Source: Candidatus Magasanikiibacteriota bacterium (GTDB lineage: Bacteria > Patescibacteriota > Patescibacteriia > Magasanikbacterales > GWA2-37-8). From it: 61,634 nucleotides of DNA. Both the position numbers and the translations under genes were made by a program. Below, piece after piece: positions 24,993 to 57,570 of this stretch (within the stretch, counting starts at the first letter, position 1; the number at the start of each line of letters is the position of its first letter). The notes below the pieces were generated by a model. That model was not told where the DNA came from. It searched no databases and saw only the letters and a program-made list of their open reading frames with translations. The DNA lies in the NCBI GenBank assembly GCA_009694865.1, contig SICD01000002.1, positions 1 to 61,634 on the forward strand, given 5' to 3'.

Positions 24993-25307
24993 TCATGTCT
25001 CTTCTGCTAGCGATTTTATTGCTTTAGTTCGAGCTGCTTCATCGACGTTCTGTTGTACTGTTTTCACCACTTCTGCTAGCGCGATTAATTTTGGTAAATA
25101 TTCAACATACATAATCTCGCTATTTAATTTGCTTGATTGAGTAAGAATTAATTTTACAAGACGACTAATATCTCCAAAATCAACAAACCCACCGTCGGAT
25201 TGTAGAATGGTGGTAACTCTTTTTAGGACGTAACTTTCTAAGTCGTCTATTTCAGGTGTTAAATTTTTAATATCGGGTGGAAGTGTTTTTTCCAAGAAAT
25301 CTGGCAT
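24993..25307 (-). CDS. Hypothetical protein
   Basis: 104-aa ORF between NUDIX and ahcY on the same strand. No motif recognised. Confidence 0.45.
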   Translation of the reverse strand: MPDFLEKTLPPDIKNLTPEIDDLESYVLKRVTTILQSDGGFVDFGDISRLVKLILTQSSKLNSEIMYVEYLPKLIALAEVVKTVQQNVDEAARTKAIKSLAEET

Positions 25308-25326: not shown

Positions 25327-26628
25327 TTAATATCGATAATTTTCCGGTTTAAATGGTCCGTTGACTGACGTGCCCAAATAATCCGCCTGTTTTTTTGTTA
25401 GCTTGGTTAATTTAACACCGAGTTTAGGAAGATGGAGACGAGCGACTTCTTCGTCGAGTTCTTTGGGCAGTACGTACACTTTGCCCGATTCGTAGATACC
25501 TTTGTTATTCCAGATGGCGAGTTGGGCGAGCACTTGGTTAGTGAACGAGGTGCTCATAACAAAGCTGGGGTGGCCGTGGGCGTTGCCGAGGTTGACGAGG
25601 CGGCCACGGGATAGGAGAACTAGGCATTTGCCATTGGCCCACACAAATTTATCTACCTGCGGTTGAATATTTTCTTCTTTAATATTGGTTTGACTCGTGA
25701 GCCAAGCCACGTCAATTTCCGAATCAAAGTGGCCGATGTTGCACACAATGGCGCCGTCTTTCATGGCGGTCATGTGTTTGCCGGTGATAATGTCGCAACA
25801 GCCAGTGGCGGTTACAAAGATATCACCGATTTTGGCAGCTTCATCCATGGTGGTAACTTCGTATCCTTCCATGGCGGCTTGCAGGGCATTGATGGGGTCA
25901 ATTTCGGTTACGAGCACGCGGGCGCCGAAGCCGTGCATGCTTTGGGCACAGCCTTTGCCTACATCACCAAAGCCGGCGACGACCACGACCTTGCCCGCGA
26001 TCATAATATCGGTGGCACGTTTGATGCCGTCGGCGAGGGATTCGCGACAGCCGTATTTATTGTCGAATTTTGATTTGGTGACGGAGTCATTCACGTTAAT
26101 GGCCACGGTGCCGAGGGTGCCTTTTTCCATCATTTGGTACAGCCGATGCACGCCAGTGGTGGTTTCTTCGGAAACGCCTTTTATTTCTTTTAACATTTCC
26201 GGGTGTTTGTCGTGCACAAGCACGGTCAAATCGCCGCCGTCGTCGAGTAGTAAATTCGGGCCTCGTCCGTTGGAAAATTTGAGGCTTTCTTCCACACACC
26301 ACCAGTATTCTGGTTCCGTTTCGCCTTTCCAGGCAAATACCGGGATACCCGCCTCGGCCACGGCAGCCGCCGCATGGTCTTGGGTAGAGAAAATGTTACA
26401 ACTACTCCAGCGCACTTCGGCGCCTAGTTCGGTGAGGGTTTCGATGAGGACAGCCGTTTGGATGGTCATGTGGAGACAGCCGGCAATGCGGGCGTCTTTC
26501 AATGGCTTTTGACCCTTATACTTTTCCCGTAGAGACATGAGGCCGGGCATTTCTTTTTCCGCGAGAATTATTTCCTTGCGGCCCCAGGCGGCGAGGGTAG
26601 TGTCGGCGACTTTGTAATCTGAATTCAT
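25327..26628 (-). CDS. ahcY: Adenosylhomocysteinase
   Basis: 433 aa with a strongly conserved SAHH pattern ([19 protein letters not shown]-binding [20 protein letters not shown]). Confidence 0.96.
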
Positions 26629-26643
26629 AATTTATATTTAATT

Positions 26644-27303
26644 TTATTTTAAATTTCCCTTAATCTCTTTGGGGGAATTATAATATTGTAAGTAAAATTC
26701 CCTGTCTGGTACCGCCAGAGGGAGCCCCGCTTCAATAATAGTATGTAATGTTAATTGAGCAAATTTATTTGGGGAATTTATTGCTCGACCATCTCCAAAG
26801 TGTATTGCCCCAAAGCGAACAAAAAATTCATATCGTCCTTTTGCCTCATTGATTTGGGCAATGAGTCCGGAGTGGTGGGCGTTAGGAACAAGATCAATTT
26901 CTGTGCCGTATGCGCTGTCCATTTCCGGTATTGCTATTGTACTCTGTTCCTGATTTCTGTCATCCCAAGCCACACGCGCTCCCTTAATATGTTCAATTGT
27001 AAGTTTAGTATCTATTAGTAAAACAATACGGTCCTCTTCGCCAACTCCAAATGAGCGTACACCGCCATCTTCCAGATCAGATATTAAAGCCGAAATATCA
27101 GATAGAGTTCCCACCGTAAGATCGTCTTGGGTTAGGCCGGGGAGCTCATTAGAAGGGATGGCTGGATTTAGCTGGTCGCTAAAACGATCGCCAAATTTTT
27201 CTTTAAGTCTGTCCCCAAAAAGTTTTTTGGCTCGTTCAACACGAGCGCTGCGTTCCCGCTCGCGCAGAGCTTCCACGGCTGCTAAGGAATCATATTTGAT
27301 CAT
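26644..27303 (-). CDS. Hypothetical protein, downstream partner of XRE regulator 1
   Basis: 219-aa ORF, 81 nt downstream of the XRE gene on the same strand. No motif recognised. Confidence 0.55.
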   Translation of the reverse strand: MIKYDSLAAVEALRERERSARVERAKKLFGDRLKEKFGDRFSDQLNPAIPSNELPGLTQDDLTVGTLSDISALISDLEDGGVRSFGVGEEDRIVLLIDTKLTIEHIKGARVAWDDRNQEQSTIAIPEMDSAYGTEIDLVPNAHHSGLIAQINEAKGRYEFFVRFGAIHFGDGRAINSPNKFAQLTLHTIIEAGLPLAVPDREFYLQYYNSPKEIKGNLK

Positions 27304-27384
27304 AGTTATAGCCCTTTTTCGTTATACGTCTTCGCATATCTCTAACCAAACCCCTCTTTCGTAAACGTGCGTACTTGCATTCCA

Positions 27385-27642
27385 CTACCTTAAATTAACT
27401 TCCAACCGTTTACCAAACGCACCCGCCACCTTTACTAACATGGCTAGGGAAAAATTTTGATTGCCTGCTTCCATGCGGGCCACGTTGCTTTGGGTGGTAC
27501 CGAGACGCTTGGCTAAGGCGGATTGGGAAAGTTTTTTTTGTTTACGGAGGCGAAGGATGTCCCCAGCAATTTTTAATTGGAGGCTTTTGAATTTTGTAGT
27601 GACGGTATTAGAAAATTTTTTCATATACTGTGTATATATCAT
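27385..27642 (-). CDS. XRE-family HTH protein (paralog 1)
   Basis: LSQSALAKRLGTTQSNVARMEAGNQNFSLAML. About 80% identical over about 66 aa to the ORF at 28164-28403. Confidence 0.85.
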   Translation of the reverse strand: MIYTQYMKKFSNTVTTKFKSLQLKIAGDILRLRKQKKLSQSALAKRLGTTQSNVARMEAGNQNFSLAMLVKVAGAFGKRLEVNLR

Positions 27643-27684
27643 TTGCGATATATATTGTCAAGTTAATTGTCCAGTCCGTCGTTC

Positions 27685-27852
27685 TTATAAAAGACGGTCG
27701 AGGTCGCGTTTGAGCTTCGCAGGGAGCACATCTTTTGTAATAAGCCGCTCGATTTCCAAAATATTTAGCAGGCCGGGCATTTCTTTTTCGGCGAGAATTA
27801 TTTCTTTGCGGCCCCAGGCGGCGAGGGTAGTGTCGGCGACTTTGTAGCTCAT
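27685..27852 (-). pseudogene. Chimeric remnant: duplicated first 27-28 codons of ahcY fused to 27-28 unrelated codons
   Basis: Hand translation gives [28 protein letters not shown] + [27 protein letters not shown]. Nucleotides 27771-27846 are 74/76 identical to 26541-26616. Its ATG overlaps the upstream stop codon (ATGA). Confidence 0.6.
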
Positions 27853-28148
27853 AACGCAGATTTAGTAAATGATTTAGACAGATTTTTATGCTCAAGTTTT
27901 TTCCCAATTAAAAAGCCAGCAAAAGCTAAGATTGTTGCATAAAAAAATGGTAAAAGTATAATTACTCCAGGCGCAATTCCACCACGGTATCCAAGCGCCA
28001 CGACTATTTTAATCAGGAGTGCTGGAAGAAGCATCGGCCAAGCAAGAATATAGGAGGGCTCTTGTCCCGAATTTAAAAATGGAAGAATACCAACGAATAT
28101 TCCTACCATTAATCCGACGAACAAACCGATCCATTTTTTATTGATCAT
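27849..28148 (-). CDS. Small membrane protein (3 predicted TM), downstream partner of XRE regulator 2
   Basis: 99-aa hydrophobic ORF, 15 nt downstream of the XRE paralog. Confidence 0.5.
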
Positions 28149-28163
28149 ACTATTTTATTTGTG

Positions 28164-28403
28164 TTACCCAAAATTCACTTCTAATCGTTTCCCAAACGTG
28201 TACGCTAGTTTGCCCAGCATGGCGAGGGAAAAATTTTGGTTGCCGGCCTCCATGCGGGCCACGTTGCTTTGGGTGGTGCCGAGTTTTTTGGCGAGCGTTT
28301 GTTGCGACATTTTTTTACTTTTGCGAAGTCGAAGTATATCGCCAGTAATTTTTAATTGGAGACGTTTGAATTCCGTGGCAGTGGTATGAGAAACATTTTT
28401 CAT
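28164..28403 (-). CDS. XRE-family HTH protein (paralog 2)
   Basis: MSQQTLAKKLGTTQSNVARMEAGNQNFSLAML. Confidence 0.85.
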   Translation of the reverse strand: MKNVSHTTATEFKRLQLKITGDILRLRKSKKMSQQTLAKKLGTTQSNVARMEAGNQNFSLAMLGKLAYTFGKRLEVNFG

Positions 28404-28419
28404 AGAGATCTGATTGACG

Positions 28420-28521
28420 ATACCCCTCTCTGCGTCTCTCCCCTAATGTAGGAGAGAGCAATTTGATCACCGCCCAACGTTCCCCTCCCCGCTTTTAGGG
28501 GGAGGACGGAAGAGGGGGTAT
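28420..28521. repeat. Family B GC-rich element: outer stem enclosing two hairpins (intergenic copy)
   Basis: ATACCCCTCT...AGAGGGGGTAT outer stem. Inner hairpins are TCTCTCC-CCTAATGTA-GGAGAGA and CCCCTCCCC-GCTTTTA-GGGGGAGG. Confidence 0.65.
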
Positions 28522-28584
28522 TCGGCACCACGTGAATTCGTCTGCAAGCCTACCATATCATTTATGATATGTTATGTCAAATTG

Positions 28585-29607
28585 TTAGAGTGCCATTTTT
28601 TCTTTATACGTCTTCTCATACCTCTCCCCAAACTCCTCTTTCGTGAAACTGTGTTCCTGCGTGCCGTAGGTCTCAATCGCGTAACTCGCCGCTACACTGC
28701 CAATTTGGGCGCAGATTTTGAGGTGCAAGCCTTTTTCGTAGCCTACTAAAAAACCAGCCCGAAAGGCATCGCCGGCGCCGGTGGGGTCATCAACAGACTT
28801 TGGGGGGCAGGGGGCGACTTCAATTATCTCTCCGTCGCTCGTGCTAATAATGGAGCCTTTTTCTCCAAGCGTGGTGATGAGTGTTTTGGTTTCTTTTAAA
28901 ATATTTTGGGCATCCCAGCCGGTTTTATCTTGAATCAGTTTAATTTCATAGTCGTTGCCAATTAAAAACTGGCTTTGGCTAATGAGGTGTTTGAGTTCAA
29001 CGTCCGTAAACGCTGTGATTTGCTGGCCCGGGTCAAACATTACCGGAATCCCGCGGCTATGACACTCATTACTATGCTTAATCATGGCGCGTTTGTCGGT
29101 AGGAGCGATTATTGCGAGCGACACGCTCCCACCACCCCCCACGGCTGTGGCCGCCCCTCCTCGGGCAGGAGGGGACACCAGCGCCTCCCCTCCTTTCCAA
29201 GGAGGGGTAGGGGTGGTTGCCGACGCTATATCTGCCGTGTCGTTGAGTGGCCCGCTGTAAAACGCGGTTACTTGGTTGTCGTCCATATCGGTGGTGATGT
29301 AGGCGGAGGCGGAGAGTTTGGTGGCATCTTGAAAAATGTGGTCGGTGGCGATGTTAAATTTTTTAAAATGATCGAGGTAATCTTTGGCATCTCGTCCGAC
29401 GGCAGAAACGATGAGTGGGTCGGCGCCGAGCATTTTCATGGTATAGCCAATGTTGCCGGCCGTGCCGCCCCAACTTCTCTCAAGTTTATCCACCACAAAA
29501 CAGACGTTTAAGATGTGCAATTGTTCCGGCATGATGTGATTTTTAAAACTGTCCGGAAAATTCATGATGTAATCGTAGGCCAACGATCCTGATACTAAAA
29601 TGGACAT
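28585..29607 (-). CDS. PfkB-family sugar/nucleoside kinase (adenosine-kinase-like) carrying an internal Family B repeat
   Basis: PfkB signature DPTGAGDAFRAGF and N-terminal GG motif WGGTAGN. The roughly 30-aa Pro/Gly-rich insert is encoded by 29128-29219. Confidence 0.85.
   Translation of the reverse strand: MSILVSGSLAYDYIMNFPDSFKNHIMPEQLHILNVCFVVDKLERSWGGTAGNIGYTMKMLGADPLIVSAVGRDAKDYLDHFKKFNIATDHIFQDATKLSASAYITTDMDDNQVTAFYSGPLNDTADIASATTPTPPWKGGEALVSPPARGGAATAVGGGGSVSLAIIAPTDKRAMIKHSNECHSRGIPVMFDPGQQITAFTDVELKHLISQSQFLIGNDYEIKLIQDKTGWDAQNILKETKTLITTLGEKGSIISTSDGEIIEVAPCPPKSVDDPTGAGDAFRAGFLVGYEKGLHLKICAQIGSVAASYAIETYGTQEHSFTKEEFGERYEKTYKEKMAL
29128..29219. repeat. Family B element inside the pfkB-family CDS
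   Basis: CCACCACCCC...GGGGTGG outer stem with hairpins CCCCTCCT-CGGGC-AGGAGGGG and CCCCTCCTT-TCC-AAGGAGGGG. Translated as TTPTPPWKGGEALVSPPARGGAATAVGGGG. Confidence 0.65.
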
Positions 29608-40625: not shown

Positions 40626-40744
40626 ACTGCTTGCTTATGTAGTTAAATTTTGTTATTGTTAGTCAATAGAATTGCTCGTATCATAGCAGAAATTGATTAG
40701 AATTACCAGATGTTCACATTATTACAGTGTTGGCTCTCAATCAA

Positions 40745-40799
40745 GGGGATTGCCACGCCTGCCTGCCGGTAGGCAGGTCGCTACGCTCCTCGCAATGAC
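40745..40799. repeat. Family A arm upstream of and overlapping the glycosyltransferase start
   Basis: The reverse complement reads GTCATTGCGAGGAGCGTAGCGACCTGCCTACCGGCAGGCAGGCGTGGCAATCCCC. Confidence 0.6.
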
Positions 40800-42114
40800 A
40801 CTTGTGCAGCCAAAAATTCTCATCCTCCACGACTATTTTTTGTATAAAGGCGGCGGGGAGCGGCTGGTGATTAGCCTTGCCAAAAATTTGGGAGCAGATG
40901 TAGCCACGGCGTTTATTGCCAAGGACGCGTTTGACCCGCGTGAGCACGGAATAAAGACGATTGAACTGTATAAAGAAAAACCCTGGTCGCGAGTGCCGGG
41001 GTTTAGGTATTTGCAGGTGCAGTTGTCGTTTTTGTTTAAGACGAAATTTGTACGGAATTATGATGTAGTGATTTATAGTGGGGATTGTTTGGTGGCGGTG
41101 ATAAGGGCGTTGGGGTGGCGTGGATTGTGGCGAACCAGCGAGACCTCTCCCCAACCCTCCCCCCTGCGGTGGGGAGGGGGGCCAATCACACCTCCTCCAC
41201 CGCAGGGGAGGAGGCAGGAGGAGGATTCACATCATCTACGCAACATCGCCTATATGCATTCACCGCCCAGGCATTTGTATGATTTGTACAAGGAACGACT
41301 GGCGGCCTATCCTTGGTGGAAGAAAATTATTTTTGTGCCGTTTGTTTGGTTTAACCGCTGGCGATTTGAGTGGTTGTGTCGGAAATTGGATACAATTGTA
41401 ACTAATTCGGAGAATACGCGTAAAAGAATACAGCAGTATTTGGGTTTAGACTCAGTGGTGGTGTATCCACCGTGCGATACGTTGGTGTTGAAGAATGGGA
41501 GCGAGACCTCTCCCCAACCCTCCCCCCTGCGGTGGGGAGGGGGGCCAATCACACCTCCTCCACCGCAGGGGAGGAGGCAGGAGGAGGACTCGTCACCGGT
41601 CCACCCTTATTTTTTCTCCTGGGCACGATTGTATGATGTTAAGCGCGTGCCAATGATTGTGGAGGCCTTTATTAAAATGCCGGATAAACAGTTGATAGTG
41701 GCATCGGGTGGCCCGGATTTAGAAAAAATCCAAAAAATGGCGGCAGGACATTCGAATATAAAAATTTTAGGTTGGATTAATGACGAGCAGTTGATTGAGT
41801 ATTTAGGGAAATGTTTGGCAACGATTTATATCCCGATGCAGGAAGATTTTGGTATGACGGCGGTGGAGAGTATGCAAGCGGGGAAGCCGGTGATTGGGGT
41901 GGCGGAGGGCGGGCTCCTTGAAATTATTGAAGATAATAAAAATGGATTGATGTTAGAATCAAATTTTACGGTGGATGATTTGTGCGCGGCGGTGCAGTCA
42001 CTTACGCCGGATCGAGCCAGTGTAATGGAGAGTGTGTGCGAAGAAACCGCAAAGAAATTTTCCGAAAAAAGTTTTATTGAGGGGATGAAGAAAGTGATTG
42101 AAGGTGTTTGTTGA
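40795..42114 (+). CDS. GT4-family glycosyltransferase carrying two identical internal Family B repeats
   Basis: Start trimmed to MTLVQPKILILHDYF. C-terminal GT1/GT4 pattern EDFGMTAVESMQAGKPVIG. Inserts lie at 41137-41225 and 41500-41588. Confidence 0.85.
   Translation: MTLVQPKILILHDYFLYKGGGERLVISLAKNLGADVATAFIAKDAFDPREHGIKTIELYKEKPWSRVPGFRYLQVQLSFLFKTKFVRNYDVVIYSGDCLVAVIRALGWRGLWRTSETSPQPSPLRWGGGPITPPPPQGRRQEEDSHHLRNIAYMHSPPRHLYDLYKERLAAYPWWKKIIFVPFVWFNRWRFEWLCRKLDTIVTNSENTRKRIQQYLGLDSVVVYPPCDTLVLKNGSETSPQPSPLRWGGGPITPPPPQGRRQEEDSSPVHPYFFSWARLYDVKRVPMIVEAFIKMPDKQLIVASGGPDLEKIQKMAAGHSNIKILGWINDEQLIEYLGKCLATIYIPMQEDFGMTAVESMQAGKPVIGVAEGGLLEIIEDNKNGLMLESNFTVDDLCAAVQSLTPDRASVMESVCEETAKKFSEKSFIEGMKKVIEGVC
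41137..41225. repeat. Family B element, copy 1 inside the glycosyltransferase CDS
   Basis: 89/89 nt identical to 41500-41588. Hairpins are CCCTCCCC-CCTGCGGT-GGGGAGGG and CCTCCTCC-ACCGCAGG-GGAGGAGG. Confidence 0.85.
41500..41588. repeat. Family B element, copy 2 inside the glycosyltransferase CDS
   Basis: Identical to copy 1, offset by 363 nt (same reading frame). Both encode SETSPQPSPLRWGGGPITPPPPQGRRQEEDS. Confidence 0.85.
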
Positions 42115-42251
42115 TACTTTTTGGTAGCAAAAAGTATCCAAAAAACCATTGGGGCGCCATAACTCCCGCCAAAGGCGGGCAGGCGCCTCTATCTCGGTGG
42201 CTCCTTGCCCCGTCGAATGACGGGGGAACAAGGCCGCCCCCAAACCCCCAG
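42113..42251 (+). repeat. Family C structured repeat, copy 1
   Basis: GATACTTTTTGGTAGCAAAAAGTATC hairpin + CAAAAAACCATTGGGGCGCC...variable...AACAAGGCCGCCCCCAAACCCCCAG. Overlaps the glycosyltransferase stop codon. Confidence 0.7.
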
Positions 42252-42273
42252 ATGTGCGCGAATTAAATTTATT

Positions 42274-43614
42274 ATGACAATGCGAAAGCTTGTTTCTGTA
42301 TTATTTATCATTCTAATGATTGGGTTATTTGGAACTCATTTTTTTGTTGTTCCAGCGCGGGCAGATGACACGGGGGCGACGCAGCAGCAATTGGAACAGC
42401 AGCTCCAAGATATTGAAAAGCAGATTTTGGTTTTAGAAAAACAGCTGGCAACTACCGCGAGCCAAAAGAAAACGCTGGCGAGTCAGATTAAAAAATTGCA
42501 GACCAAGCAAGACCAGTTGCGGCTTCAGATTAAGGCGACTAATTTAAAACTCAATAAAATTGCTAAAAATATTGCTGTTACCGAAGTGGCAGTTGCGTCA
42601 ACACGCGCGACGATTCAGGATCAACAGCGCCAAGTGGCGGTGTTTCTACGGCTAATGAACCAGCAGGATGAAACGCCATGGTTAGTGCTCATAACCGAAG
42701 CGGGGGGTCTTAATAAAATTTTTACTGAAATTCAAAATTATATTATTATCTCGTCGGAGCTCGGGCGTTTAACCAAAGCTGCCAAGACAAGCCAAGTTAA
42801 ATTGGAGGGACAAGTCGCGAGTTTAACTGACGCGAAGAACGATACAACGGAACTATTGCAAATAAAAATCGTGCAACAGGCGGCGCTGGGTGGTCAGCTC
42901 ACGGAGCAGAGTGATTTGCTGGTTGAAACCAAAGGCAAAGAGAGCAATTTTCAATCCCTGCTCACAGATAGCAGGAAAGCCGCTGCCGAAATTCGCGGAC
43001 GCATTTATGAGCTATTTGGCACCACCAAGAATATTGATTTTGGCCAGGCCGTGGCAATTGCGGAATTTGTGGCGGCAAAAACTGGTATTAGACCGGCGTT
43101 TCTTTTGGCGATTCTTACACAGGAGTCGAATCTTGGTAAAAATGTAGGTACATGTAACCGAATTGGAGATCCGCCTGAGAAAAGTTGGAAAGTTGTTATG
43201 AAACCGGAGCGCGACCAGGAACCGTTTTTAAAAATTACCCAGGATTTAGGTTTGGACACGGATACGACTCCAGTCTCATGTCCGCTAAAAGATAAAAAAG
43301 GGAAGCAATTTGGGTGGGGCGGGGCGATGGGGCCGGCTCAGTTTATTCCGTCTACGTGGATGGGGTACACGGCGAAAGTGAGCGCGCTCACGGGGAAGAC
43401 GCCAGCCAACCCGTGGGATATTCGTGACGCGTTTGCGGCGTCAGCGATAAAGTTAACTCATGATGGAGCGGACGGTACCAGCGAGGGGGAGTGGAAGGCG
43501 GCGATGAAGTATTTTTCTGGCTCAACCAATACGCGGTATCGGTTTTATGGCGATAATGTCCTCACAATTGCGGAGGGGTATGAAAAAGATATACAAGCAT
43601 TGAAGAATCAGTGA
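42274..43614 (+). CDS. Secreted coiled-coil protein with C-terminal lytic-transglycosylase-like domain
   Basis: Start trimmed out of the repeat to MTMRKLVSVLF (signal/TM). Long Gln/Leu coiled coil, and a C-terminus AILTQESNLGKNVGTC...GAMGPAQFIPSTW. Confidence 0.7.
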   Translation: MTMRKLVSVLFIILMIGLFGTHFFVVPARADDTGATQQQLEQQLQDIEKQILVLEKQLATTASQKKTLASQIKKLQTKQDQLRLQIKATNLKLNKIAKNIAVTEVAVASTRATIQDQQRQVAVFLRLMNQQDETPWLVLITEAGGLNKIFTEIQNYIIISSELGRLTKAAKTSQVKLEGQVASLTDAKNDTTELLQIKIVQQAALGGQLTEQSDLLVETKGKESNFQSLLTDSRKAAAEIRGRIYELFGTTKNIDFGQAVAIAEFVAAKTGIRPAFLLAILTQESNLGKNVGTCNRIGDPPEKSWKVVMKPERDQEPFLKITQDLGLDTDTTPVSCPLKDKKGKQFGWGGAMGPAQFIPSTWMGYTAKVSALTGKTPANPWDIRDAFAASAIKLTHDGADGTSEGEWKAAMKYFSGSTNTRYRFYGDNVLTIAEGYEKDIQALKNQ

Positions 43615-43625
43615 CGATAGTGGCT

Positions 43626-43745
43626 GATACTTTTTTGATGGCAAAAAAGTATCCAAAAAACCATTGGGGGCGGCTAACTCGCTTCAGGAATATCTTTTCA
43701 CCGCGTGTTGAGTTAGCTCAAACAAGGCCGCCCCCAAACCCCCAG
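43626..43745 (+). repeat. Family C structured repeat, copy 2
   Basis: GATACTTTTTTGATGGCAAAAAAGTATC + CAAAAAACCATTGGGGGCGGCTAACTC...GAGTTAGCTCAAACAAGGCCGCCCCCAAACCCCCAG. Confidence 0.7.
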
Positions 43746-43784
43746 GGTGGCGTGGACAAAGTTTTTAGAAAGTGACAGTGATTA

Positions 43785-47667: not shown

Positions 47668-47804
47668 GATGATCCTCCTTTCTCCCGCGCCAGTGCGGGA
47701 GTGGCAGAACCATAGCAGAGAGAGAGAGTTGTAAAGGCCTGTGGGGTGGATAAAAAAACAGAAATTCGTGGAGAATTTCTATAAGTGTTTTTGATTGTGT
47801 GATT

Positions 47805-47899
47805 GATACTTTTTGGTGGCAGAAAGTATCGCAAAAACCACTGGGTGGCCAGAACTCGTCGCTTCACTCCTCAAACAGCTGGCCCCCCAGACCCCCAAG
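47805..47899 (+). repeat. Family C structured repeat, copy 3 (diverged)
   Basis: GATACTTTTTGGTGGCAGAAAGTATC + GCAAAAACCACTGGGTGGCCAG...CTGGCCCCCCAGACCCCCAAG. Confidence 0.6.
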
Positions 47900-47913
47900 G
47901 AAACAATTTTTTC

Positions 47914-47975
47914 TTATTTTACTTTTCGTTCGCGTTTGGGGATTTTGAAGGAGATGAGGTTGCGCTGTTGGTTTA
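47914..47975 (-). pseudogene. Remnant of a recQ 3' end
   Basis: The reverse complement encodes ...NLISFKIPKRERKVK*, compared with the recQ C-terminus ...NLQTKISLKIPKRERKIK*. Nucleotides 47897-47955 match 50010-50068 at about 54/59. Confidence 0.6.
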
Positions 47976-48137
47976 GTAAATTATAGTGGCTAAAGTAAGG
48001 TGCTGTTTTGATTTTAGCCTTGATAAGAACAAGCCCGCTCTCTTGACATTTTTAACCACAAGGTTTATAGTTATGGCATAGAGTATGAAATGTTACATAC
48101 TACAACATACTAGACTAATAAATTACAATTGCCCAAG

Positions 48138-48162
48138 ATCCCGACCAAGTCGGGATTTTTTA
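48138..48162 (+). terminator. Terminator-like hairpin 14 nt upstream of the helicase start
   Basis: ATCCCGAC-CAA-GTCGGGAT followed by TTTTT. Shares the CCCGACCAAGTCGG core with 19661-19676. Confidence 0.4.
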
Positions 48163-48175
48163 ATGTAATAACACT

Positions 48176-50008
48176 ATGCAAGAAAAATTAAAGAAGACAA
48201 TTCTTGACCAGTCTCGTAAGCATATTGCAGACATTCGTCAAAAAATTGATGATACTATTAAGCGTCGTGAGGCTAAAACAGCTGTTATGAAAAAATCGGC
48301 AATCTCAATGTTGCCCGGCGACGCAATGGCCCAGTATAAAATTGCGGCCAACAACCAAGAGCAAGTCGAAAATCTTAAACAACTTTATCCGTCGCCCTAT
48401 TTTACCCGTTGTGAATTTGAAATTAACGGTGAGAAAAAAATAATGTATTTTGCTAAGTTTTCTTTTAGCGACGAAAAAATATATTCATGGATTACCCCAG
48501 CCTCGACGCTCCGTTTTGAGAACCCTGGCCCCGCTTCTTACGCTCGACCAGACGGAAAAGTACAATCAGGGGTATTGCTGAGTAAAAATCAGTACATGAT
48601 TGTTGACGGCAAGCTATTATTTCTTTCGACCGAAAGTACGGAACACAGAAGGGAGCTGATCTACCAAGAACATTTTACCCGTCAAAAGTCCGGTTTTATT
48701 TTGCCAGAAGTAGTGGAGCAAATGGAAAAAGCACAAGACCAAGTGGTGCGTGCTCCGTATCGTGGGCCTTTTCTCATTTCTGGCCCGGCTGGTTCAGGAA
48801 AAACAACATTGGCGCTCCATCGCGTTGCCTACTTAATGCAATCGCCGGAAACCGCTGAGCTATTTCCGACTAATTCTATATTGGTTTTAGTCCAAGATAT
48901 CGGCACTAAAGAATATTTTTCGCACTTGCTTCCCGAGTTAGGTATACGAGGAGTGGAAATTATCACGTTTGCGGAATGGGCTTTGACTATACTGGATTTA
49001 AGTAACAATTACCACGTTATTGTTCGCTATGGCACCAACGAGCAAGAAAGAAATTTGTATGAGTATAGCAAGATTATTGCTTTAAAACAGTTACCGAACG
49101 ACACAAATTTTAACAAAAATATTTGGGGGTTGCTTCAAAAAATTTATAAAAATGTTTTTAACAAAGCCCAACAAGAGCTATTCGTTCAACAAAAAAACGA
49201 GCTCGCGCTAGACCGTTTTGATCTAACCATTTTATTGAAGTACTATTTCAAAACGTATGGACAGTTTACGATACGTAAAGATTATTATGAGGAATTGGCC
49301 AGTGGGTCTTATCGTAAAAAGAACAACGCCTTTCAAGTAGAGTATAATTTAACAATTATTGATGAGTTCCAAAATTATTTGCCCGAACAACTGGCCTTGC
49401 TTAAAACGTGCCTTAATCATCGGTTGGAGTCAATAGTATACGTTGGCGATTTGGCACAACAAACGCAATTAGGAACGGTGAGAGATTGGGATAGTATTGG
49501 AGAAAAAATCGAAAGCAATAGACTGGTTACTCTTCAAAAGGTATATCGCAACACGAAACAAATTTTGAACTTTATTCGTGAGCTTGGTTATGCTGTCCAA
49601 ATACCGCAAGGAGTTAAAGAAGGTCGGTTGGTAATGGAGTATGTGTTTGAATCAAAACAAGAGGAGATAGCCAAAATTAACAAAATTTTATTGGACTCTA
49701 GTGGTGGTGCCATTGGGATTCTTGCGAAAGATAGAGAATACCTCGATGAATTTAAGAGGGAGTTTGGCGAGAACCCAAATGTGCACTGTCTAAACATGCT
49801 GGAAGCGCAGGGTGTAGAATTTGAAACGGTTTGTCTTGTTGGTATTGATAAAAGTTCTTTTGGCGTTGATGGGTTGCCACAGGCGGCGCTAGAAGAAATA
49901 AAAAAAGTTCAGCGAGATTTATTATATGTGGCACTTACTCGTGCCATGTCGGAATTGCACATTATGGGCAAGACGAGATTAAAAGATATTTATGATAGCA
50001 GTTTTTAA
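48176..50008 (+). CDS. UvrD-superfamily helicase, HelD (helicase IV)-like
   Basis: N-terminal coiled coil, then PYFTRCEFEI...MYFAKFS...SWITPASTLRF. Walker A GPAGSGKTT, Walker B IIDEFQN, C-terminal LLYVALTRAMSELHIMG. Confidence 0.75.
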   Translation: MQEKLKKTILDQSRKHIADIRQKIDDTIKRREAKTAVMKKSAISMLPGDAMAQYKIAANNQEQVENLKQLYPSPYFTRCEFEINGEKKIMYFAKFSFSDEKIYSWITPASTLRFENPGPASYARPDGKVQSGVLLSKNQYMIVDGKLLFLSTESTEHRRELIYQEHFTRQKSGFILPEVVEQMEKAQDQVVRAPYRGPFLISGPAGSGKTTLALHRVAYLMQSPETAELFPTNSILVLVQDIGTKEYFSHLLPELGIRGVEIITFAEWALTILDLSNNYHVIVRYGTNEQERNLYEYSKIIALKQLPNDTNFNKNIWGLLQKIYKNVFNKAQQELFVQQKNELALDRFDLTILLKYYFKTYGQFTIRKDYYEELASGSYRKKNNAFQVEYNLTIIDEFQNYLPEQLALLKTCLNHRLESIVYVGDLAQQTQLGTVRDWDSIGEKIESNRLVTLQKVYRNTKQILNFIRELGYAVQIPQGVKEGRLVMEYVFESKQEEIAKINKILLDSSGGAIGILAKDREYLDEFKREFGENPNVHCLNMLEAQGVEFETVCLVGIDKSSFGVDGLPQAALEEIKKVQRDLLYVALTRAMSELHIMGKTRLKDIYDSSF

Positions 50009-50026
50009 GAAGGAAACAATTTTGTT

Positions 50027-51871
50027 TTACTTTATTTTTCGTTCGCGTTTGGGGATTTTGAGGGAGATTTTGGTTTGGAGATTGTGCGACTGACAGTAAG
50101 TGGAAATCGCGGAGATAAATTGTTGCCCGTATTTTGAAGTTTTTAAATCGCCGAAGCCGGAGATTTTGCGGATGTCCTCAAGAGACATAGGGAGATAGGT
50201 GGCGAGTTCGAGAATGGTGGCGTCGGAAAAAATAAGATAAGGCGGGACGTTTTCGGCGCGGGCGAGATTCGTACGGATGAGTTTGAGATTGGTGAATAAT
50301 TCTGGTTCAGAGGGGACGTCTTCTTGTTGAGGTGCCACTGGCTGTGACCGTACGGCAGTTTTTATTAACATTACGATTTCTTTGCCTTGGAGCACGGGCA
50401 CGCTTTTTTCGGTGAGTTTTAAAACGGGGTACTCCAGGCCGCCGACGCGGAGGTAGCCGAGGCCGACGAGGTCTTTGAGGTAGCGGAGCCAGAGTTCTTT
50501 GGGGAGGTCGGCGCCGGCGCCGTAGGTTTTGAGGGCGCGATGTTCGTCTTTCATTTTTTCTGATTTGGAACCGCGCAAAAAATCTGTCACGTAGTGGCGG
50601 CCGTACTGGCCTTCCAGGCGCGCGACGGCGGAGAGGGCTTTTTGGGCAATGAGTGTGCCGTCGAATCGTTCCACTTCGGTGAGACAGGAGTCGCAACTGG
50701 CGCAGGCAGCGGAAGTTTCTTCCCCAAAATAGTTTAAGAGCAGTTTTCTACGGCAGTCACGACTTTCGCCGTAGGCCATCATTTGGTTAAGTTTTTTGAG
50801 GAGGATGGTGTTTTGTTCCGGATTATTTTCAATTTGTATAAATTTTTTTAATTTCATTACATCGCCGGCGCCGTAAAAAAGCAAGGCGTCACTTCTTAAG
50901 CCATCGCGACCCGCTCGCCCGGTTTCTTGGTAATAGCTTTCAATATTTTTGGGGAGATCGACGTGGATAACAAAACGCACGTTGGATTTGTTGATGCCCA
51001 TGCCAAAGGCAATCGTGGCCACGATAATTTTTACGTCATCTTTAATAAAAAGTTCTTGATTTTCTCGGCGCGTCTCCGGGTTAAGGCCCGCATGATATGG
51101 GCGCACGGAAAAACCTTGGAGATCCAGATTTTCGGCCAGGTCCTCGGCGGATTTTCGGGATAAAGTGTAGATGATACCAGAGTCATCGCGGTGTTTTTCT
51201 AAATAATTGCCGAGGCGATTGGTGAGGCTGTTTTTTGGTTCCACAAAATAGTGAATATTGGGGCGGTTGAAGCTGGAGAGAAAAACTTCGGCTTTTTGGA
51301 GGCCAAGTTTCTCCATAATGTCGCGGCGAGTGGTTTCGTCGGCCGTGGCGGTGAGGGCGATGGTGGGCGCGCGCGGGAATAATTCTTTGAGGCGGGCGAG
51401 CAGGCGATACTCGGGTCGGAAGTCGTGGCCCCAGGCGGAGATGCAGTGGGCTTCGTCAATGGCGAACAGTGAGACGTTGAGCGTTTGTAAGAATTGCAAA
51501 AATTCGCCGCTACCGCCGAGGAGTCGTTCGGGGGCGACGTAAAGGAGTTTGAGTTTGTTTTGTCGGAGTTCGTTCATTACCCACGTGCGGTCGTCGGTCG
51601 AGAGGGTAGAATTTAAAAAAGCGGCCGGGATGCCGTTCAAGCGCAGGGCGTCCACCTGATCTTTCATGAGGGCGATGAGAGGAGAAATGACGACGGTGAG
51701 GCCGGGGAAGAGAAGCGCGGGAATTTGGTAACAAAGCGATTTGCCACCGCCGGTTGGCATTACGGCAAGGGCATCACGCCCCTCGAGCACAGCGTTAATG
51801 GCGCCCTCTTGCTCGTGGCGGAATGAGTCGTAGCCGAATTTGGTTTTGAGGAGGTCGAGAGCGGAGGGCAT
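50027..51871 (-). CDS. recQ: ATP-dependent DNA helicase RecQ
   Basis: TGGGKSLCYQIPA, DEAHCISAWGHDFRPEY, Zn-binding Cys cluster, and a C-terminal HRDC-like segment. Confidence 0.95.
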   Translation of the reverse strand: MPSALDLLKTKFGYDSFRHEQEGAINAVLEGRDALAVMPTGGGKSLCYQIPALLFPGLTVVISPLIALMKDQVDALRLNGIPAAFLNSTLSTDDRTWVMNELRQNKLKLLYVAPERLLGGSGEFLQFLQTLNVSLFAIDEAHCISAWGHDFRPEYRLLARLKELFPRAPTIALTATADETTRRDIMEKLGLQKAEVFLSSFNRPNIHYFVEPKNSLTNRLGNYLEKHRDDSGIIYTLSRKSAEDLAENLDLQGFSVRPYHAGLNPETRRENQELFIKDDVKIIVATIAFGMGINKSNVRFVIHVDLPKNIESYYQETGRAGRDGLRSDALLFYGAGDVMKLKKFIQIENNPEQNTILLKKLNQMMAYGESRDCRRKLLLNYFGEETSAACASCDSCLTEVERFDGTLIAQKALSAVARLEGQYGRHYVTDFLRGSKSEKMKDEHRALKTYGAGADLPKELWLRYLKDLVGLGYLRVGGLEYPVLKLTEKSVPVLQGKEIVMLIKTAVRSQPVAPQQEDVPSEPELFTNLKLIRTNLARAENVPPYLIFSDATILELATYLPMSLEDIRKISGFGDLKTSKYGQQFISAISTYCQSHNLQTKISLKIPKRERKIK

Positions 51872-57162: not shown

Positions 57163-57210
57163 GCGGAAAAAATAAGATTCGAACTCACGGTACCTTGCGG
57201 TACGACAGTT
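57163..57210 (-). pseudogene. Decayed 3' half of a second tRNA-Ser(UGA)-like gene
   Basis: AGATTCGAACTCACGGTACCTTGCGGTACGACAGTTTT is identical to the intact gene, but the acceptor 3' strand GAGGGTG is replaced by AAAAATA, which disrupts the T stem. Confidence 0.6.
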
Positions 57211-57267
57211 TTTCCCCCTCGCGGGGGATCACCCGAGCTGTGGCTCTGGCGAGAGGGTGACAAGACT
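57207..57267. repeat. 61-nt direct repeat, copy 1 (anticodon-loop flanks plus 48-nt GC-rich Family-B-like insert)
   Basis: AGTTTTTCCCCCTCGCGGGGGATCACCCGAGCTGTGGCTCTGGCGAGAGGGTGACAAGACT, 60/61 identical to 57458-57518. Confidence 0.8.
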
Positions 57268-57278
57268 TACCACTACAG

Positions 57279-57363
57279 CGGAGAGGGTGAGATTCGAACT
57301 CACGGTACCTTGCGGTACGACAGTTTTCAAGACTGTTGGTTTCAACCGCTCACCCACCTCTCC
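57279..57363 (-). tRNA. tRNA-Ser (anticodon UGA), intact
   Basis: GGAGAGGTGGGTGAGCGGTTGAAACC..., anticodon arm ACAGT-CTTGAAA-ACTGT, long variable arm CGTACCGCAAGGTACCG, T-arm GTGAGTTCGAATCTCAC. Confidence 0.88.
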
Positions 57364-57457
57364 GCTCTCGTGATAAATTTTAATTTTCTACGCTGAAATT
57401 TTTTATTCTTCTTTTTTAATTTACTTTCAATAAAGTAGACTACTCCCATACGTGTAA

Positions 57458-57518
57458 AGTTTTTCCCCCTCGCGGGGGATCACCCGAGCTGCGGCTCTGG
57501 CGAGAGGGTGACAAGACT
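57458..57518. repeat. 61-nt direct repeat, copy 2
   Basis: Same sequence as 57207-57267 with one C/T difference. Confidence 0.8.
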
Positions 57519-57570
57519 GTTGGTTTAAACCGCTCACCCACCTCTCCGCTCTCGCGATAAATTTAATTTT
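57512..57570 (-). pseudogene. 5' half of the interrupted tRNA-Ser(UGA)-like gene plus duplicated upstream flank
   Basis: CAAGACTGTTGGTTTAAACCGCTCACCCACCTCTCC + GCTCTCGCGATAAATTTAATTTT, compared with the intact ...TTTCAACCGC...GCTCTCGTGATAAATTTTAATTTT. Confidence 0.6.

Follow-up and report, generated by a model that had tools for sequence, protein, structure and literature searches.

How did the start of a housekeeping gene come to stand twice in one chromosome, in the same orientation and with two further genes between the copies? The question is raised by the 5′ end of ahcY, the gene for S-adenosylhomocysteine (SAH) hydrolase, on contig SICD01000002.1 (GCA_009694865.1) of Candidatus Magasanikiibacteriota, of which positions 1 to 61,634 of the forward strand (61.6 kb, referred to below as the window) were analysed. 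The duplication lies in the gap between ahcY and pfkB, a gene for a PfkB-family nucleoside kinase, and every gene of this region is on the minus strand. A first inspection of the sequence, referred to as the original prediction, had seen a small two-gene cassette there, consisting of an XRE regulator gene and a gene for a 219-aa protein, which had been inserted together with a long target duplication that regenerated an intact ahcY. The evidence presented here leads to a different view, held with moderate confidence: the locus is probably a recombination scar in the pfkB–ahcY gap, produced by homology-anchored additive insertion of DNA from a related genome.

The duplicated ahcY start

The repeat search delimited a 77-nt direct repeat (26540–26616 and 27770–27846), identical at 75 of 77 positions (97%), in close agreement with the 74/76 reported originally. 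Both mismatches, GCG/GCC and AAG/AAA, fall on third codon positions and are synonymous. Without a mismatch, the copies agree over at most 41 nt, and a match of this length and identity excludes chance. The homology of the two starts begins at TTATGA, with the start codon included, a 6-nt indel separating the copies (MS-YKV versus MNSDYKV), and the homology of the repeat stops where two natural ahcY alleles diverge.

Read along the minus strand, the locus comprises pfkB, a promoter, a GC-rich insertion, the XRE gene designated XRE2, a gene for a 99-aa protein, the old leader and the old ahcY start (28 codons), and then Z′ (27 foreign codons), a second promoter, the XRE gene designated XRE1, a pfkB relic, the 219-aa gene, a 15-nt leader and ahcY. 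The distal copy of the repeat belongs to a 55-aa open reading frame (ORF, 27685–27852), whose residues 3–32 match Pfam AdoHcyase (E = 4.7e-8) and are followed by 27 unrelated codons; the ATG of this ORF shares the four nucleotides ATGA with the TGA that ends the 99-aa membrane ORF. Both the fusion of an ATG-bearing ahcY fragment to foreign codons and its overlap with the stop of the upstream membrane-protein gene had been described correctly, as had the presence, in the 1.15 kb between the repeats, of an XRE gene (HTH_3 match) and of a 219-aa protein without a recognisable motif (no Pfam match). The transition from codon 28 of the old ahcY to Z′ at 27769/27770 is abrupt; we infer an illegitimate join at this point. 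The 27-codon peptide itself had neither a Pfam match nor a relative among the loci compared.

The ancestral start and the variable gap

The closest ahcY matches are from Candidatus Magasanikbacteria, of the candidate phyla radiation (CPR, Patescibacteria), and the gap was compared in the four closest ahcY loci (L090, L093, L094 and L095). In L090, the closest relative (ahcY 91% identical), pfkB and ahcY are separated by a 129-nt spacer that contains no gene, one MFS-like gene is tightly packed between them in L093 and L095 (ahcY 90 and 88% identical, respectively), and L094 has another upstream gene before ahcY. The gap is thus variable among relatives, and the synteny comparison upheld the proposal of an insertion at the ahcY start with ahcY left intact. 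Gene-end repeats were found at this gap in none of L090, L093 and L095, and the 99-aa protein showed no similarity to the MFS-like genes of the relatives at this position.

The 32 nt located 5′ of the distal ATG (27853–27884) correspond at 32 of 35 positions to the non-coding ahcY leader of L090 (7969–8000), and the proximal ATG is preceded by an AT-rich 15-mer that is unrelated to the ancestral leader when the two are aligned. Because its leader matches that of L090 and the proximal leader does not, the distal fragment is, on the strength of this alignment, the original ahcY start at its original place. The 11-codon C-terminal tail of the 99-aa ORF consists of the same former leader, which is non-coding in L090 and is now translated through.

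The N-terminus of the working ahcY, MNSDYKVAD, also occurs in a relative (P0066), MSDYKVAD stands at the ahcY N-terminus of two others (P0054 and P0062), and the distal copy reads MSYKVAD. Since MNSDYKVAD is natural in P0066, the incoming DNA would have borne a real ahcY start and not a chance in-frame ATG. The long target duplication of the original prediction does not agree with these features, as the distal copy stands behind an L090-like leader and the proximal copy has a foreign leader and the natural MNSD start. As no promoter-like site was found in the new 15-nt leader (26629..26643), ahcY is probably co-transcribed with the 219-aa gene.

Exact-protein look-ups returned no identical protein on record for ahcY, the 99-aa protein or XRE2, and a degenerate pattern of the lineage-specific ahcY N-terminus, searched against metagenomes, yielded one TARA contig only, which was unrelated. 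Neither a SAH riboswitch nor another known RNA was found, the Rfam search over the window returning three tRNAs only. The window also contains dnaA-dnaN and a run of core genes, and this core run is syntenic with relatives.

The pfkB relic and the succession of events

The repeat search returned three further pairs that are absent from the original prediction, namely the two XRE genes, their promoter/operator blocks and the pfkB 3′ end. A 69-nt copy of the pfkB 3′ end (28597–28665) lies at 27315–27383, between the XRE1 stop and the 219-aa start. Read in frame, this relic covers the last 25 codons and the stop; it is interrupted by a stop codon, first, second and third codon positions have all changed, and it ends 2 nt before the 219-aa ATG. 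Since the insert bears both this pfkB 3′ relic and a genuine ahcY 5′ end, the 219-aa gene would once have sat in the same gap of another genome, and on the simplest reading the insert may be taken as a slice of another genome's pfkB–ahcY interval instead of a dedicated cassette. The packing of the relic, the 219-aa gene and ahcY mirrors the tight pfkB–gene–ahcY packing of L093 and L095.

The two duplicated gene ends have diverged to different degrees, with 2/77 differences in the ahcY pair versus 14/69 in the pfkB pair (Fisher p = 9e-4); for XRE1 versus XRE2, the synonymous divergence (dS) is ~1.1 and the ratio of nonsynonymous to synonymous divergence (dN/dS) ~0.15. This unequal divergence of the relics points to successive events at the locus, the ahcY event being the latest.

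The order of pfkB end, XRE, ahcY start, XRE, pfkB end and ahcY start resembles two tandem units, and no relative comes nearly as close to either ahcY copy as the other copy does. Both features would suit an origin within a single lineage, in which an older rearrangement or duplication of the pfkB–ahcY interval was followed by deletions, and gene conversion equalised the ahcY starts. We consider this origin unlikely, given that the insert is present once, the relic follows XRE1 instead of preceding it, in an order unlike that of a duplicated unit, the leaders and N-termini of the two ahcY starts differ, and the cargo genes for the 99-aa and 219-aa proteins are unrelated. The original prediction was to fall if the distal fragment proved to be the ancestral start and the arrangement a simple tandem duplication. 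The first half of this holds, the fragment being ancestral by its leader, but simple tandem duplication is rejected on the single insert and on the pfkB relic, which is on the wrong side of XRE1.

The same observations bear on a transposon-like insertion, in which widely staggered cuts would have left a 77-bp target-site duplication, as was first proposed from the direct repeats that immediately bound the insert. Such an insertion is extremely improbable in view of the leaders and N-terminal codons in which the copies differ, the proximal start being a natural ahcY variant, and of the pfkB relic within the insert. Moreover, no terminal inverted repeats were found, no transposase domain was found among the ORFs scanned with Pfam, and the two products of the insert, XRE1 and the 219-aa protein, are both devoid of one. 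To our knowledge, no transposase makes 77-bp duplications.

Proposed course of the insertion

Under the additive insertion favoured here, the resident arrangement would have been pfkB, XRE2, the 99-aa gene, the ancestral leader and ahcY (MSYKV...), and the donor gap in a related genome would have held Z, XRE1, the pfkB relic, the 219-aa gene and ahcY (MNSDYKV...). A piece of ~1.2 kb would have arrived, plausibly by natural transformation, bearing ~90 nt of its own ahcY 5′ end as the anchor. It could have been integrated by a single (Campbell-type) crossover of a circularised fragment sharing only the ahcY 5′ end, or by homologous recombination at the ahcY end combined with an illegitimate join at ahcY codon 28, that is, by homology-facilitated illegitimate recombination (HFIR), at the non-homologous end of which the illegitimate junction usually has 3–10 bp of microhomology. 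Either route would give the same product, namely the old start, the insert and the new start joined to the remaining ahcY, and hence a direct repeat. Selection would keep only those events that restored a complete ahcY; since a complete ahcY is needed for survival, the gene would appear to have been regenerated without dedicated machinery. In the aftermath, the old start would have become part of the 55-aa fusion ORF, the native ahcY leader would have been lost, and ahcY would be transcribed with the 219-aa gene from an auto-repressed XRE1 promoter or by read-through.

Additive insertion of this type calls for a flank that is homologous between donor and recipient, and the 77-nt repeat (97%) provides it. 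No transposase or integrase domain was found by Pfam in the 56 ORFs scanned within the window, and the repeat search found no inverted repeats at the insert ends that would link 26617–26660 with 27730–27769. In Escherichia coli, a circularised fragment that enters by a single crossover leaves 109–950 bp of shared sequence in duplicate, and HFIR has been recorded in naturally competent bacteria (PMC3240628). For type VI secretion system (T6SS) and Rhs arrays, a form of additive displacement has been proposed in which old gene ends are left stranded (PMC5361080), and members of the CPR Saccharibacteria have been shown to be naturally competent (PMC10633639).

Several points weigh against this course of events. 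No donor-type genome with the order pfkB–219aa–ahcY was found in the protein and metagenome searches, so that the pfkB relic inside the insert speaks for such a donor only indirectly, and the sole homologue of the 219-aa protein is distant and located in another gene context. The ahcY copies are 97% alike, compared with ~77% to any relative, so that the donor would have to be a very close strain, unless gene conversion has made the copies alike. The model does not account for where Z′ came from or for the placement of XRE1 upstream of the pfkB relic, natural competence would have to extend from Saccharibacteria to Magasanikbacteria, and the distal junction 27769/27770 is without independent read or assembly support.

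The last point leads to the question of an assembly artefact, in which the gap alleles of two co-existing strains would have been merged in a chimeric contig. The locus does resemble two allelic versions of the gap placed in series, and the tRNA-Ser and recQ sites described below are alike in this respect. Logan contig L001 (run SRR8561390), an independent assembly, equals window positions 26587–27679 at 100%, the distal junction lying outside it. It breaks off within the proximal repeat after exactly 30 nt, the point at which a k = 31 graph would branch, and thus shows that two left-hand contexts of the repeat exist in the sample, not that they are linked; its other end, at 27679, is unexpected. 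At the same time, the 27769/27770 join is not obtainable by mis-traversal between a strain with an intact ahcY and a strain with 219aa–ahcY, as a real molecule with the ahcY–Z′ fusion is needed, and the longest exact shared run (41 nt) is shorter than the largest k in use among common metagenome assemblers. On balance, an artefact is quite improbable. At 27679, L001 still has ~90 nt to go to the distal repeat, and it has passed the start of the promoter homology between XRE1 and XRE2 by 7 nt on the upstream side; coverage may have been low here, or a strain variant may lie directly upstream of the XRE1 module.

Features of the region and the XRE genes

The features of the region are collected in Table 1.

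Table 1 Features of the pfkB–ahcY region, in ascending order along the window
Feature	Position	Strand	Basis
Functional ahcY, S-adenosylhomocysteine hydrolase, 433 aa, N-terminus MNSDYKV	25327..26628	-	Pfam AdoHcyase E = 3e-135 and AdoHcyase_NAD; 91% identity to L090 ahcY
Proximal copy of the 77-nt repeat (ahcY codons 5-30)	26540..26616	-	Repeat search
New AT-rich leader (15 nt) that links the 219-aa stop to the ahcY ATG	26629..26643	-	Alignment, unrelated to the ancestral leader
219-aa near-orphan gene	26644..27303	-	Family and homologue searches
pfkB relic, last 25 codons and stop, decayed, with in-frame stop	27306..27383	-	55/69 nt identical to 28597-28665
XRE1, HTH_3/HTH_37 regulator	27385..27642	-	Pfam HTH_3 E = 5.5e-13; probable start ATG 27624 (79 aa)
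XRE1 promoter/operator	27625..27672	-	Sequence, homologous to 28555-28583; putative function
Z′, 27 codons joined in frame to the old ahcY start	27688..27769	-	Junction 27769/27770
Distal copy of the 77-nt repeat, within the 55-aa relic ORF 27685-27852	27770..27846	-	Repeat search, Pfam
99-aa predicted membrane protein	27849..28148	-	ORF; stop overlaps the old ahcY ATG (ATGA)
Ancestral ahcY leader, which doubles as the 11 terminal codons of the 99-aa ORF	27853..27884	-	32/35 nt identical to the L090 leader
XRE2, paralogue or allele of XRE1	28164..28403	-	Pfam, alignment with XRE1
GC-rich palindromic insertion that separates the XRE2 ATG from its promoter	28404..28531	.	Gap in the XRE1/XRE2 alignment
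XRE2 promoter/operator	28552..28583	-	TTGACA, 17 nt, TATGGT; palindrome ATATCAT-AA-ATGATAT
Intact pfkB-family nucleoside kinase gene	28585..29607	-	Pfam PfkB E = 2e-35; 72% identity to L090 pfkB

XRE1 (27386–27625) and XRE2 (28165–28404) were 76% identical at the nucleotide level in the repeat search, and the start of XRE1 is most likely ATG 27624, which aligns with the XRE2 start. Both genes share a 29-nt promoter/operator block (27636–27664 and 28555–28583), each having its own near-consensus predicted promoter with a palindromic operator. In the case of XRE1, the promoter consists of TTGACA, 17 nt and TATATA, with a 7-bp inverted repeat (ATATATC-N6-GATATAT), and its mRNA is probably leaderless because the -10 box ends 8 nt before ATG 27624.

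About 49 members of the XRE1/XRE2 family were detected in the CPR. In related CPR genomes (L083–L088), a Gp49 (PF05973) gene (120–127 aa) stands in every case immediately upstream of the XRE homologue (94–97 aa) and overlaps it, so judged by its gene context the family in these relatives is the antitoxin of an upstream Gp49/HigB-like toxin, forming a HigB/HigA-like pair. No Gp49 toxin gene or remnant was found near XRE1 or XRE2 when the toxins of three relatives were compared with the window by tblastn, and the idea of a Gp49/HigB remnant upstream of either gene is rejected on this empty search.

Downstream of ahcY, a 104-aa ORF without a family match (24993–25307) is located between ahcY and a NUDIX gene, at another variable spot that lacks a gene-end repeat; in L002 and L095, the NUDIX gene directly follows ahcY.

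The 219-aa protein

The 219-aa protein was compared with Pfam, PHROGs, PADLOC, NCBIfam, PDB sequences and viral contigs, with 5.8 billion proteins by a word-index search, with 1.8 billion representatives by exhaustive HMMER, and with phages and plasmids by tblastn. No significant match was obtained in Pfam, PADLOC, NCBIfam, PDB, viral contigs, phages or plasmids, and PHROGs gave a single weak sub-threshold match (phrog_21322, E = 0.006). One distant homologue (P0002, 29% identity) was found among the 1.8 billion representatives. It belongs to an unrelated genome (54% GC) and lies in a context other than pfkB–ahcY, with no XRE gene in the 255 nt upstream that remain up to the contig end. Two AlphaFold2 runs gave predicted local distance difference test (pLDDT) values of 34 and 38, and the models were unusable.

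The XRE gene and the 219-aa gene had been put forward as a candidate toxin–antitoxin or defence-like module, with a profile search and structure prediction as the means of following this up; these produced no significant family and the low pLDDT values (34–38) just given. The 219-aa gene is parted from XRE1 by the pfkB relic, which implies that the two genes were joined secondarily. The candidate is left without support, given this relic, the empty family searches and the absence of Gp49, and a type II toxin–antitoxin module formed by XRE1 and the 219-aa protein is likewise unsupported in view of the relic between the genes, the sole homologue without XRE in the 255 nt upstream, and the lack of any toxin or defence match in Pfam, PADLOC, NCBIfam or PDB.

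Similar scars and other repeats in the window

Two more loci of the window carry scars of this kind. At recQ (50027–51871, minus strand), a 59-nt direct repeat (47897–47955 and 50010–50068, 92% identical) takes in the 13 terminal codons of recQ with the stop and the 17 nt that follow, and encloses a 2.05-kb segment (47956–50009) with a UvrD/HelD-like helicase gene (48176–50008). At the tRNA-Ser(tga) locus (57163–57570), the old tRNA-Ser copy is split in two, with a 47-nt GC-rich hairpin element in the anticodon loop; a 61-nt element region is duplicated (57207–57267 and 57458–57518, 98% identical) around a 190-nt insert that holds an intact tRNA-Ser (57278–57363) together with its own upstream flank. 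The ahcY, recQ and tRNA-Ser repeats have no common motif, as would be expected if homology drove the events and no site-specific system was at work. Gene-end repeats of at least 45 nt within 5 kb were absent from ~100 kb of eight related loci, the sole repeat family there (47 nt, 72%, in L085) lying inside the repeated domains of one large protein gene. The recurrent and unusual insertion mechanism suggested originally holds insofar as recQ/helD shares the layout of repeat, insert and repeat, so that the pattern recurs in this contig.

These loci also bear on another idea, according to which a small integrative element, non-autonomous and served by an integrase encoded elsewhere, uses the ahcY 5′ end as its attachment site, the 77-nt repeat being attL/attR. 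Recombination between att sites yields a repeat–insert–repeat structure with an element-borne replacement gene end, and there are two more scars in the window with repeats of 59–61 nt. Only a slim chance is given to such an element, however, as no integrase was found in the insert or in the 56 ORFs scanned within the window, the three repeats are without a common motif when their sequences are inspected, and the insert bears relics of both flanking housekeeping genes (pfkB 3′ and ahcY 5′), as chromosomal DNA of the same gap would. Moreover, no second copy or relative of the unit was found in the 5.8-billion-protein or viral collections, the only other occurrence of the insert being the identical L001 sequence from the same population.

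Three scars in 61.6 kb (77, 59 and 61 nt), each with a working gene copy beside a stranded old piece, form the basis for a further thought, namely that homologies of 60–80 nt may serve this lineage for adding DNA at gene ends by a route that is unusually active and possibly dedicated. We regard this as very doubtful.

GC-rich palindromic insertions (CCCCTCC...GGAGGGG hairpins) are present in this AT-richer genome at 28404–28531, 29154–29217, 41137–41228 and 41500–41591. The second is in frame inside pfkB, and the pfkB of L090 has a 28-aa insert of another sequence at the same spot; the last two, 99% identical and 363 nt apart, are in frame in a glycosyltransferase ORF (40693–42114). They recall the palindromic elements of the Rickettsia type, which insert in frame. 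Their treatment as one family was unsupported by blastn. Additionally, an intergenic element of ~55–150 nt is present in three copies (42111–42270, 43626–43764 and 47803–47857) and comprises a hairpin (GATACTTTTTGG..CAAAAAGTATC) and a CCCCCAAACCCCCAG box, with no Rfam match; two copies flank a SLT-like gene (42205–43614), and the third lies 40 nt from the recQ relic.

Significance and comparison with known systems

The locus offers a clean and dated illustration of additive gene gain in a CPR bacterium, at a variable gap flanked by two core genes, with two successive events readable from relics of unequal age. As a result, the essential ahcY is without its native leader and is probably reliant on transcription from acquired DNA. 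For annotation, the 55-aa ORF and the pfkB-like stretch should be treated as relics, and the XRE gene and its unknown neighbour should not be called a toxin–antitoxin pair. A wider value would follow only if the three scars of the contig reflect a lineage-specific recombination habit; if this were true, they would represent a distinct additive mode of gene gain in ultra-small CPR genomes, perhaps tied to natural competence and a reduced repair repertoire.

With respect to known systems, the locus is best regarded as one more recombination scar of a familiar kind at a CPR gene-gain hot spot, and neither as a novel mobile element nor as a novel toxin system. XRE1 and XRE2 are members of the HTH_3/HTH_37 family that is paired with Gp49 in the Gp49/HigB–HigA modules of related CPR genomes, but they are solo and shorter (79–85 aa) and have their own promoter/operator, and the downstream 99-aa and 219-aa genes are unrelated to known toxins. 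The attL/attR sites of integrative elements at gene ends, e.g., tRNA 3′ ends, provide a parallel in their gene-end direct repeats and in a gene kept intact by the incoming copy; unlike them, the ahcY insert has neither an integrase nor a conserved core motif, and it bears relics of both flanking chromosomal genes.

In the Rhs, contact-dependent inhibition (CDI) and T6SS effector–immunity arrays, modules enter through homology in a conserved neighbour, orphan the old gene ends and build up additive arrays (PMC5361080). The ahcY locus is similar in that relics of the pfkB end and of the ahcY start were left one after the other and that it holds two XRE modules, whereas its anchors are housekeeping metabolic genes (ahcY and pfkB) instead of toxin genes, and its cargo shows no evidence of a toxin–immunity function.

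Campbell-type integration and HFIR also have in common with the ahcY locus a short homology that anchors foreign DNA, inserts of ~1 kb and no need for a dedicated recombinase, and in Campbell-type integration the homologous segment is likewise duplicated on both sides of the insert (PMC3240628). The differences are that the duplicated homology at ahcY is only ~77–90 nt long, that classical HFIR usually deletes recipient DNA instead of duplicating it, and that the ahcY event was not observed but is read from its scar in the genome of an uncultivated CPR bacterium.

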